Translations under genes and position numbers: made by a program
Notes under the pieces: generated by a model
What the model saw: the letters and a program-made list of their open reading frames with translations, nothing else
Database searches by the model: none
What the model was told of the DNA's origin: nothing
Source: Promethearchaeia archaeon
GTDB lineage: Archaea > Asgardarchaeota > Lokiarchaeia > Sigyniarchaeales > SOKP01
DNA: 32,000 nucleotides
Reading direction: 5' to 3'
NCBI GenBank assembly: GCA_046497275.1
Contig: JAWOFX010000057.1
Span: 117,249-149,248 of the forward strand
Shown: positions 17,834-21,158 of the stretch, piece by piece
Position numbering within the stretch: position 1 is the stretch's first letter
How the letters are laid out: every line of letters starts with the position of its first letter

Positions 17834-18529
17834 GTGCCATCGGAAAAGAAGAAGATTAGTAGAGTAATTGACTTTATGAAAAAAGGATTAACCAGTTTAG
17901 CTGATGAATTAGAAGAGACTGTGAAAAATATAAATTCTTTTATTGATTCTCTTCAAAAAGCTGAGAAAGATCTGAAGGGAATTAGCATTGAAAAAGTAAC
18001 CACTGTCAGTACGTCATCTCAACAAGTGGTTGCCCCAACATCAGATGCGAAATCTACGGCAGCCAATACACTATTTAGCTTATTAAGTGGCTCTCAAGCT
18101 GGCGCGGGTATATCTCAACCAGCTACAGCCCAATCTAGTGGTTTGAAAGCTCCAACATTAGGAGGACCTAAAGCACCAAGCGCGGGACCACCTAAAGCGC
18201 CATCCTCTGGCCCTCCTAAAGCACCGTCTGCCGGACCACCAAAGAAATCAAATTTACCTCCAGCACCAAAACCATCCGCAGGACCTCCAAAAGCACCAAG
18301 CGCGGGACCACCAAAGGCACCAACATCGGGACCTCCAAGCACACCAGCATCATCTGGACCACCAAAGGCACCAACATCGGGACCTCCAAGCACACCAGCA
18401 TCAGCAGGTCCACCAGCAGCCCCTAGAGCACCTGCAACAGCACCTAAGGCAGGAGGAGGTTTGAGCTCACTGAGAGATGAAATGTTGGATGAATTAAATC
18501 GCTTAAAAAAGATTATGCGTGGAGAATAA
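17834..18529 (+). CDS. Coiled-coil / proline-rich / C-terminal WH2-like protein (candidate actin-binding or nucleation-promoting factor)
   Basis: Heptad I12-L19-L26-I33-L40-L47; amphipathic 'AANTLFSLLSG'; nine GPP-containing repeats; terminal 'GGGLSSLRDEMLDELNRLKKIMRGE'. GTG start with SD. Confidence 0.8.
   Translation: MPSEKKKISRVIDFMKKGLTSLADELEETVKNINSFIDSLQKAEKDLKGISIEKVTTVSTSSQQVVAPTSDAKSTAANTLFSLLSGSQAGAGISQPATAQSSGLKAPTLGGPKAPSAGPPKAPSSGPPKAPSAGPPKKSNLPPAPKPSAGPPKAPSAGPPKAPTSGPPSTPASSGPPKAPTSGPPSTPASAGPPAAPRAPATAPKAGGGLSSLRDEMLDELNRLKKIMRGE
18161..18448 (+). repeat. Intragenic tandem repeat encoding GPPKAPS(A/S)/GPPSTPAS units, including an exact 48-bp duplication
   Basis: GGACCACCAAAGGCACCAACATCGGGACCTCCAAGCACACCAGCATCA occurs at 18305-18352 and 18356-18403 (51-bp period); the other units are synonymously diverged. 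Confidence 0.92.
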
Positions 18530-18647: not shown

Positions 18648-19397
18648 ATGTCAGATAAAAAAACTATTATCTGTGAAGATCAGGAAATTCCGATTGTAAT
18701 ACCAAAGAGATTAATGGTGTTTGCTCCTCATCCCGATGATGAAATTATTTCATGTGGTGGGACAATTCTAAAATATGAAGCGCTTGGATCAGAAACAACA
18801 ATTATAATAGCTACCTCTGGACTTGGTGGTTATGCAAAAAAGGAAGAAAAAAAACATATTTTAGAAACAAGAGAAAAAGAGATACAAAACATTAGTGAAA
18901 TATTAAATTCAAAAGTGATAGAATTAGGCTATGATCATTTAACTATAAATCGGGAAGCCATTTCTAGAATTACTAATTTAATTAGAGATCTCAGACCGCA
19001 TGTAATTTTTATGCCTCACTTTTCAGATTTTCATCGTGTTCACCGTGAACTCTCATTCATAGTTCGGGAAAGTATTTATCATTGTGCGACTGGGAAAGCG
19101 TATGGCGGTCATAGTCGAAATTGGACTCCGTTTGCGGTTTATTATTATGAATCGCCATCATGTAAATTTCAATACATCGAGGGCTCTGTGTTTATAACTG
19201 TTGATATAGAGAACTATTGGGAACAAAAAAAGCAAATTTTTAACCAAATTTATAAATCTCAGAAAGAAGTGTTAAAAAGAGTTATGGATTGGGCAGAAGA
19301 CACAGCAGTTTTGAGAGGAAATGAGATAAATTCAAAATTTGGTGAAGCATATATCCCCGAAACAACGTACACTCCTCTAAAAATCTTGTTGGGTTAG
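18648..19397 (+). CDS. PIG-L / LmbE / BshB family metal-dependent de-N-acetylase
   Basis: 'VFAPHPDDEIISCGGTI', 'REKE', 'IRDLRPHVIF..H..D.HRVH', 'ITVDIENYWEQK', 'RG......FGEAY'. Confidence 0.88.
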   Translation: MSDKKTIICEDQEIPIVIPKRLMVFAPHPDDEIISCGGTILKYEALGSETTIIIATSGLGGYAKKEEKKHILETREKEIQNISEILNSKVIELGYDHLTINREAISRITNLIRDLRPHVIFMPHFSDFHRVHRELSFIVRESIYHCATGKAYGGHSRNWTPFAVYYYESPSCKFQYIEGSVFITVDIENYWEQKKQIFNQIYKSQKEVLKRVMDWAEDTAVLRGNEINSKFGEAYIPETTYTPLKILLG

Positions 19398-19566: not shown

Positions 19567-20682
19567 ATGCCAAATCTAACTATTGTCATGGATATAGGAC
19601 AATTTAGCAGTAAAGTGGGGTTTTCAGGTGAAGATAACCCTGCAATGGTATTTTTTACTATTGTGGGAAAACCGAAATACGCTGATTTTGAGGGTCAATT
19701 TACAAAACAGAAGCAGGAACTTTATGTAGGTGACGAAATACAATCATTAGGATTATATAAAATTTATCATCCTATTGAAAAAGGAAGAATTACTGATTGG
19801 AACTACTTTGAAAAAATAATGGATTACACCTTCTATAATTTACGAGTGGATCCAACTCTTGTTAATATACTCTTTGCCATTCATCCTCTCTTTCCTACCT
19901 TTGATTTAGAACGATTATTTGAGATTTTTTTAGAAAAATATCAATGCATGGCGTTTTATCCAGTATTAGATCCAATGCTTACATTATATTCTGGAGGATT
20001 CCAAACTGGTCTGGTGGTTGAGATTGGAGATAGTGGCACAAGAATAACTCCCATTTATGAAAGTTTTAAAGTTGAACATGCTATTGAAATATTGGATGTG
20101 GGTGGAAAGGATTTGACCCGATATATGGGTGAGACTTTAAAGAACACTACGGGGTTTAATGTAGATTCATCTATTAGAAGGGAATTAGTACGCGCAATAA
20201 AAGAAAAAGCATGTTTCCTTTCTTTGGATTATAAGGAAGATCTAAAACGAACCGAACAATATGAAAAGCAATATTCTCTTCCAGATGGTTCCCGGATCAC
20301 ATTAAGTAAAGAAAGATTCATGGTTCCCGAACTCCTCTTTACCCCACTGCCGGAATCTGAAAATAAACCATTACATATAGCCATCATGGATGTCATCGAA
20401 AAATGTGATCTCGATATCAGACAAGAATTATTAAATAATATTTTTATATCCGGAGGATCCTCAATGTTTCCCAATCTAAAGGCAAGATTATATCAAGAAT
20501 TAGAATTAGAACTTGCTCGAAGAAAAAAACAAGACCAGACTATAAAAATTGTTGCTCCAAGAGAGAGAACCTTTTCAGTATGGGTGGGAGGTTCAATTTT
20601 AACGATGATTCCTGAATTTTCTGATAATTGGATTACTCGTGCTGAATATTTTGAAGAAGGAATTCCTGAAGATCTGCTATAA
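19567..20682 (+). CDS. Actin-family protein (divergent Asgard actin-related protein)
   Basis: Colinear with eukaryotic actin over the full length: IVMDIGQFSSKVGFSGEDNP, YVGDE, HPIEKGRITDW, LRVDP, IKEKACFLSLDY, YSLPDG, ERFMVPELLF, KCDLDIR, ISGGSSMFP, IKIVAPRERTFSVWVGGSIL, WITRAEY.E.G. Confidence 0.95.
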   Translation: MPNLTIVMDIGQFSSKVGFSGEDNPAMVFFTIVGKPKYADFEGQFTKQKQELYVGDEIQSLGLYKIYHPIEKGRITDWNYFEKIMDYTFYNLRVDPTLVNILFAIHPLFPTFDLERLFEIFLEKYQCMAFYPVLDPMLTLYSGGFQTGLVVEIGDSGTRITPIYESFKVEHAIEILDVGGKDLTRYMGETLKNTTGFNVDSSIRRELVRAIKEKACFLSLDYKEDLKRTEQYEKQYSLPDGSRITLSKERFMVPELLFTPLPESENKPLHIAIMDVIEKCDLDIRQELLNNIFISGGSSMFPNLKARLYQELELELARRKKQDQTIKIVAPRERTFSVWVGGSILTMIPEFSDNWITRAEYFEEGIPEDLL

Positions 20683-20780: not shown

Positions 20781-21158
20781 ATGGAAAAGATTAATCCTGA
20801 TAATCTTGAAACTATTAACCTTATGAAGAAATATTATAAACCAGATTATTCAAAATTATTCAACAAGATAAAAAATATTAAAACTCCTGTTAAGAATAAA
20901 ATTTTACATGCTTTGTTAGATGGTTCTTGGCATTCTGAGTTAGAACTGATACGGATCGCTCGAAAACAAGAAAATTATATTGGTTCAGTTACCTTAGGAA
21001 CGATGGTAAATTCTCTCAATCATATTGTCCGTAATGATTATTTGGAGAAAAAACAAGCGGACGGAAAAATGTATTATAAGCTTTCAGATAATTATGTTGG
21101 ACTCACACGCGCAGCATATACAAAATATCAATATGAACATAAAGATCTAGAGTCTTAA
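20781..21158 (+). CDS. Small winged-helix protein, possible DNA-binding regulator
   Basis: 'KILHALLDGSWHSELELIRIA...VTLGTMVNSL...YLEKKQADGKMYYKLS' has the helix-helix-helix-beta-wing pattern; SD-like GAGGA upstream. Confidence 0.65.
   Translation: MEKINPDNLETINLMKKYYKPDYSKLFNKIKNIKTPVKNKILHALLDGSWHSELELIRIARKQENYIGSVTLGTMVNSLNHIVRNDYLEKKQADGKMYYKLSDNYVGLTRAAYTKYQYEHKDLES

Follow-up and report, generated by a model that had tools for sequence, protein, structure and literature searches.

A Lokiarchaeial actin-related protein with retained nucleotide-grip residues and replaced hydrolysis residues

The locus described here raises the question of whether an actin-like gene that lacks the residues used by actin for ATP hydrolysis is a further copy of the conserved Lokiactin or a paralogue with another function, and what that function might be. 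The gene lies in a window of 32,000 nucleotides, the whole stretch of DNA that was analysed, which corresponds to positions 117,249–149,248 of the forward strand of contig JAWOFX010000057.1 (Promethearchaeia archaeon, assembly GCA_046497275.1). It occupies positions 19,567–20,682 of the window as an intact open reading frame of 371 codons with an ATG start codon, and its product is referred to below as the ARP (actin-related protein). This gene and all other features of the window given below are on the forward strand.

Identity, distribution and origin of the gene

The product matched the Pfam Actin family (PF00022) over residues 5–365 (E = 7 × 10−87, 292 bits against a cut-off of 27) and is therefore a full-length family member. 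The best sequence match in the PDB was the Asgard HC1 actin (9wc4), followed by eukaryotic actins. The AlphaFold model (pLDDT 86.6, falling below 50 only at residues 41–47) had the four-subdomain actin fold, with a TM score of about 0.90 and an rmsd of about 2 Å relative to actin; a structural comparison by VIA gave Z = 43.6, an rmsd of 1.5 over 340 residues and 40% identity to actin, which ranked above Arp3, the nuclear Arps, crenactin and MreB. Residue equivalences were read from PDB actin alignments and from a multiple alignment that follows the numbering of a eukaryotic actin. The ARP belongs to the actin family and falls within an already catalogued clade of Asgard ARPs.

By its defining residues, the ARP is not Lokiactin. 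Two canonical Lokiactins, each retaining Q137, H161, H73, N111, R177 and the HRCF end, are encoded on other contigs of the source genome (98.9% complete). The ARP was 40–43% identical to them and fell into a clade of its own (support 100/100), and its orthologue in Candidatus Lokiarchaeum ossiferum has already been published as an ARP. The claim of the first-pass annotation that this is not the conserved Lokiactin was thus borne out. Besides these Lokiactins and the ARP, the source genome has a further pair of divergent paralogues and a fragmented actin-like gene. The second Lokiactin copy (L002, contig C84:44090–45229) was 81% identical to the main copy with the catalytic set intact, and second copies of a similar kind were found in several genomes of the same family. 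The paralogue of 511 aa (L004:1483–3018, contig C169) has two zinc ribbons inserted in subdomain 3 and carries Q137S and H161W, and matches of about 500–560 aa were found across the order. The paralogue of 389 aa (L005:1474–2643, contig C180) is highly divergent, being 25% identical to the ARP, and lacks H161, K18 and P109. The gene in pieces (L006–L008, contig C66:10764–11701) is very divergent, comprises ORFs of 129 and 175 aa with an in-frame stop, and adjoins a thermosome-like gene.

The clade was already known, since the two RT-qPCR primers published for UYP44126.1 each have an exact match within the ARP orthologue of L040, from a closed genome of 6.04 Mb, and identify this protein as an orthologue. 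UYP44126.1 is one of three transcribed 'ARPs' of Ca. L. ossiferum, with a transcript level several-fold below that of Lokiactin (Rodrigues-Oliveira et al. 2023, PMC9834061); that paper gives its tree position and transcript level, without residue analysis or function. It was 49% identical to the window ARP, belonged to the same clade (100/100) and shared Q14, F15, S158 and R161, but had Gly, Asp and Asn where the window ARP has D135, E152 and H106, as well as other gene neighbours. UYP44126 appeared in that one paper only, and the literature search returned nothing relevant on H161R in actin or on the biochemistry of Asgard ARPs. Consequently, the clade itself is catalogued, a point missing from the first-pass annotation, and what is new here is the residue pattern across 152 orthologues; no earlier account of the clade-wide anatomy was found in the accessible literature, one key review being beyond reach, so that such an account may exist.

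The ARP orthologues formed a single clade in two families of one Lokiarchaeia order, and their closest named relatives were Lokiarchaeota/Promethearchaeota proteins. A profile search of 150 genomes of the class detected an orthologue in about 108 of the 126 genomes of the source family (f1), in 12 of the 13 genomes of the second family (f2) and in none of the 11 genomes of five other families; the remaining Asgard genomes in a phylum sample of 301 yielded none, and the genome searches left a clean gap between ARP orthologues and Lokiactins. A wider range, suggested by Thor-, Odin- and Hodarchaeota labels on matches of 71–76% identity, was rejected because no orthologue occurred outside f1 and f2 in the 301 phylum and 150 class genomes. 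The Anaeramoeba candidate P0130, which has an IHPxFP motif and Asp at position 137, was rejected as a relative because it grouped with eukaryotes. Identity within the ARP clade was 48–90%, whereas that of Lokiactin was mostly 89–100% within the order; the ARP clade thus has neither the high conservation nor the Asgard-wide presence of Lokiactin.

The stem branch of the clade was long (1.3–1.45 changes per site). The best trees placed the clade outside the Lokiactins, but AU tests rejected none of three placements and so left the Lokiactin ones standing, a limit that the first-pass annotation did not foresee: placement as sister to the Lokiarchaeia Lokiactin had p = 0.21, nesting inside it p = 0.13, and a grouping with eukaryotic actins, which was not recovered, p = 0.115, the last meaning eukaryotic actins and Arp1-like sequences in a tree from which named Arp2/3 sequences were absent. 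Since the distribution is narrow, duplication of Lokiactin followed by a burst of change would be the simplest history. The dN/dS ratio was 0.08–0.24 where computable, with dS near saturation, which indicates purifying selection and rules out a pseudogene. ARP identity exceeded that of the neighbouring topoisomerase in six of six pairs, and ARP dN was about 6–14 times that of Lokiactin. The long stem would suit a decaying, functionless duplicate, yet this explanation is effectively refuted by the selection and distribution data: about 120 genomes carry the gene intact, in most cases as a single copy, its dN/dS is constrained as given above, and L. ossiferum transcribes it (PMC9834061).

Nucleotide site

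Site statistics were obtained from 152 orthologues, a set strongly weighted to one family. The residues that were kept are those holding adenine, ribose, the alpha and beta phosphates, and Mg: G13, K18, G182, K213, E214, G301 and G302 were invariant in all 152 sequences, D11 and R210 were nearly so, and G156 was invariant in 140 orthologues. The phosphate-1 loop DIGQFSSK (D9–K16; 19,591–19,614) retains D11, G13 and K18 (actin numbering) next to the replacements N12I, S14Q (142/152) and G15F/Y (150/152). The ribose and adenosine grip comprises R209, K212 and E213 (20,191–20,205), which correspond to actin R210 (151/152), K213 and E214, and the adenosine loop SGGSSMFP (20,449–20,472) combines the two invariant glycines with F at the Y306 position. 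Judging from this conservation, binding of an adenine nucleotide by the ARP is likely.

The positions involved in hydrolysis and phosphate exit were replaced. In the hinge helix beginning at D135 (19,969–20,004), the Q137 position is occupied by Asp (140/152) or Gly (10/152), with clade-specific T139, G143 and F145 and with Y143 kept. The phosphate-2 loop (E152–R159; 20,020–20,043) has E for D154, which is retained as D in part of f2, keeps G156, has S for G158, is variable at V159, and has R for H161 in 152 of 152 orthologues. In the Pro-rich loop IHPLFP (19,879–19,896), E107 is replaced by I, V or T, A108 by H (139/152; H or N across the 152 orthologues) and N111 by F or, elsewhere in the set, by L, while P109 is invariant. 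I175 (20,089–20,091) replaces R177 at the phosphate back door, a position that is hydrophobic across the 152 orthologues, and K72 (19,780–19,782) replaces H73 at a position that varies within the clade (K, N, E, Q, D or G). The replacements in the window ARP proposed in the first-pass annotation, namely S14 to Q12 and G15 to F13 in DIGQFSSK, Q137 to D135, H161 to R159, D154 to E152 in EIGDSG, H73 to K72, E107 to I105 and R177 to I175, all agreed with the alignments; Gly at position 137 in the L. ossiferum branch was absent from it.

In actin, Q137 holds the attacking water, and D154, H161 and V159 hold a helping water; hydrolysis is triggered in the G-to-F transition when the Pro-rich loop 107–113 approaches R177 (PMC9618068), while A108 sterically flips H161 (PMC10062479). 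Every hydrolysis or trigger position named in these two papers is changed in the ARP. At the 15 nucleotide-grip positions the ARP agreed with Lokiactin in 13 cases, and at the 10 positions for hydrolysis and phosphate exit in none (Fisher p = 2 × 10−5), the position sets being drawn from the literature and partly from the list of the first-pass annotation, so that this is not a blind test. Divergence of the ARP is heavy in general, since, of the 163 positions that never vary among 29 canonical actins from Asgard archaea and eukaryotes, the clade keeps 71, is mixed at 37 and has lost 55; yet the losses include the whole catalytic set. Loss of Q137/H161-type residues is common among divergent actins: of 143 other divergent representatives of the actin family, 99 retain Q137, 88 retain H161 and only one has Arg at 161.

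The invariant R159 and the near-invariant H106 and D135 could form a different active site. Glu acts as the base in bacterial actins, and the ARP might likewise be an active ATPase with a rebuilt site, in which D135/E152 would serve as the base, R159 as a built-in arginine finger and H106 in place of H161, with polymerisation-independent turnover acting as a switch. This proposal, which we regard as quite unlikely, draws on the contrast at position 161 (Arg in 152/152 against 1/143) and on the joint presence of the trio D135-E152-H106 (positions 137, 154 and 108 of actin) in 134 of 152 orthologues, these positions being neighbours around the actin gamma-phosphate (PMC10062479, PMC9618068); it is at odds with the L. 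ossiferum branch, which reads G-D-N at the trio and also loses D157, and with the replacement, mostly by hydrophobic residues, of the phosphate-exit residues N111, R177 and H73. Because that branch reads G-D-N, no acid is needed at position 137, and the alternation of Asp and Gly at this position argues against a substitute catalyst. We infer that a pseudo-ATPase in which R159 would grip a phosphate or lock the site is to be favoured over a rebuilt catalyst. Little or no coupled hydrolysis, together with the lack of a self-polymer, is probable for the ARP, as the first-pass annotation suggested, and is well grounded in the pattern of the 152 orthologues.

Polymer surfaces and gene neighbourhood

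The D-loop region (residues 36–53; 19,672–19,725) was poorly conserved, comprised 15–21 residues across the orthologues and had a pLDDT below 50 at residues 41–47. Counted as P38–Y53, the loop has 18 residues in the window ARP, the same as in Lokiactin, and 16 in actin, which qualifies the earlier statement that the D-loop differs. The equivalents of K61/R62 are S60/L61 (19,744–19,749), position 62 being hydrophobic in 151 of 151 orthologues. The hydrophobic-plug region (20,338–20,376) has 13 residues instead of 14, so that its shortening, also noted earlier, is real but was overstated, as it amounts to one residue and 38 of 140 orthologues have 14. This region was the least conserved surface set (0.53, genome-balanced set), and it and the D-loop were the least conserved surface sets of the clade. 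Further changes in the polymer surfaces were A204I/V, E205R/Q and the loss of G268 in the plug.

Conservation of the barbed groove within the clade was 0.92 against a background of 0.82. The barbed face keeps Y143, I345, L346, F352, an aromatic residue at 169, D286, D288 and R290, and P243, D244 and H173 are kept as well. Its alterations are R147F, T148Q, T351E, a basic insertion of four residues after the subdomain-3 helix (RRKKQDQ; 20,518–20,538; of the same length in the orthologues displayed), and a truncated C-terminus (GIPEDLL; 20,659–20,679) that lacks the last five actin residues, H371–F375, which contact profilin. The pairs D286/R290 and P243/D244 are probably structural and are kept in Arps that are not known to touch filaments, and the asymmetry between the pointed and barbed faces is therefore modest. 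It fits a subunit able to receive either a second actin or a helix on the barbed side while presenting no canonical pointed face.

It should be noted that S14, G15 and V159 are positions of filament-stabilising actin mutants, and their changes might lock a flat conformation, with the new surfaces self-complementary, in a second stable filament or a co-polymer. The four intact subdomains and the retention of P243, D244, D286, D288, R290 and H173 would agree with such a polymer, in which E205R could be a compensated charge swap. However, conservation is lowest in the surface sets of the D-loop and the plug, both of which are variable in length, the ARP evolves about 10 times faster than Lokiactin, and expression of the L. 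ossiferum orthologue is low (PMC9834061), all of which make this polymer rather improbable, slightly more so than the rebuilt ATPase.

The gene order in f1 was the same in 14 of 14 loci examined, some with inserted genes: a gene for a Pro-rich protein (17,834–18,529), often a gene for a PIG-L family deacetylase assigned by Pfam (18,648–19,397), the ARP gene, and a small gene for a putative helix-turn-helix (HTH) protein (20,781–21,158). The Pro-rich gene is upstream of the ARP in f1 only; its product has a conserved N-terminal helical part and a C-terminal amphipathic helix ending in LKKI, which is near-invariant (LRDEML.EL.RLKKIM) and resembles WH2 or VASP-type helices. No Pfam match was obtained for this protein, which is single-copy across the class, including families without the ARP. 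In its distribution, this candidate regulator of actin corresponds more closely to Lokiactin than to the ARP. An obligate operon of the two genes was rejected, as four f2 genomes have them separated by 44–270 kb and families that lack the ARP also carry the Pro-rich gene. An uncontrolled prediction of the complex between the ARP, with ATP and Mg, and the last 34 residues of the Pro-rich protein scored 0.00, which speaks neither for nor against a contact. A dedicated archaeal nucleator or pointed-end cap, derived from actin separately from Arp2/3 and switched on by the WH2-like helix of the Pro-rich protein, which would amount to a convergent Arp-plus-nucleation-factor system in cultivable Lokiarchaeia, is improbable, slightly more so than the stable polymer.

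The PIG-L deacetylase gene adjoins the ARP in both families, mostly upstream, and downstream and convergent in L122; it was not found with the window query in three closed f2 genomes. The putative HTH protein is restricted to the order, occurs as tandem copies in some genomes and in f2 is fused behind an N-terminal region of 450–700 residues, and an HTH-homologous domain was located 4–6 kb from the ARP in several f2 genomes. In most f2 genomes, a co-oriented gene for a Ras-family small GTPase lies directly upstream of the ARP (L039:5791–6381; also L040, L041, L051, L119, L120, L121 and L123) and is preceded by a divergent gene whose product, about 460 aa long, carries a zinc ribbon at its tip. 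No gene neighbour was common to f1 and f2, and because none is universal, synteny provides leads and no proof.

The HTH gene enters into a further explanation, namely that the ARP serves as a monomer in the scaffold of a complex other than a filament, as nuclear Arp4, Arp5, Arp6 and Arp8 do, with a structural nucleotide and a barbed groove holding a helix of a partner, which might be the C-terminal helix of the Pro-rich protein or an HTH protein acting on DNA. Hydrolysis residues and polymer contacts have been lost in the same way, the aromatic residue at G15 recalls Arp4/5/6, the 26 clade-specific near-invariant positions of the ARP orthologues suggest new interfaces, and both families show linkage of the ARP to a gene with an HTH domain, which may be inherited synteny. 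The model, however, comes out nearer to actin, at Z = 43.6 and 40% identity, than to Arp4, Arp6, Arp5 and Arp8 (Z = 39.9–30, 18–27%) and has none of the large nuclear-Arp insertions, and such a scaffold is unlikely, though less so than either the rebuilt ATPase or the stable polymer.

Proposed role and comparison with known systems

The best reading, which we hold tentatively and with somewhat less than even confidence, is that the ARP is a nucleotide-binding, hydrolysis-uncoupled, non-self-polymerising accessory actin paralogue, most likely seeding or capping the pointed end of Lokiactin filaments; the role at the pointed end is, overall, a shade more doubtful. The ARP would bind an adenine nucleotide and Mg as a structural cofactor without cycling and, having lost the polymerisation-triggered hydrolysis switch and its own pointed-end contacts, would build no dynamic filaments. 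As a low-abundance accessory subunit, it might meet the pointed end of the Lokiactin filament with its actin-like barbed face and so seed or cap the filament, much as Arp2/3 or dynactin Arp11 would, with another partner possibly bound to the remodelled face of subdomain 2. Against a pointed-end role, the barbed face is remodelled as well, through the three substitutions, the insertion and the lost C-terminus described above, and the asymmetry is modest. Two further findings count against it: Asgard genomes outside f1 and f2 have Lokiactin without the ARP, and f1 and f2 do not share gene neighbours.

Asgard profilins and gelsolins have been characterised, and no Asgard nucleator or end-binding ARP was described in the literature searched; the clade bears on how Asgard archaea start, cap and position actin filaments. 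As the cultivated L. ossiferum carries and transcribes the ARP, the predictions from conservation (a bound nucleotide, uncoupled hydrolysis, an altered pointed face and an essential R159) can be tested now. If the accessory-subunit reading is true, the eukaryotic path from actin to specialised Arps would have been taken separately inside Lokiarchaeia.

Lokiactin, which forms double-stranded filaments, and HC1 actin (9wc4) share with the ARP the actin fold and the nucleotide-grip residues. The ARP differs from Lokiactin in lacking Q137, H161, H73, N111, R177, E107, A108 and the HRxF C-terminus, in its variable D-loop, in its range of two families and in its faster evolution. Crenactin (4bql; Z = 34.3) is 19% identical to the ARP, against 40% for actin, and is thus not its closest likeness. 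The nuclear Arp4/5/6/8 are likewise non-polymerising, and Arp4 and Arp8 structures contain bound ATP (3qb0, 4fo0); they differ in their lower identity (18–27% against 40% to actin) and in their large insertions, compared with four residues in the ARP, for which no remodeller complex is known. The likeness of the ARP to eukaryotic Arps is one of analogy, without shown orthology to any of them. In its proposed way of working, the ARP most resembles Arp2/Arp3 and dynactin Arp11 (Arp10), divergent actins at filament pointed ends, with fold matches of Z = 41.6 for Arp3 and Z = 33.9 for dynactin chain J; its insertion after the subdomain-3 helix recalls Arp2/3 as well. Arp2/3 keep Q137/H161-type hydrolysis and work in a seven-subunit complex, whereas the ARP clade has D or G at 137 and R at 161 and so lacks this hydrolysis set, and, in contrast to Arp11, the ARP has an intact subdomain 2.
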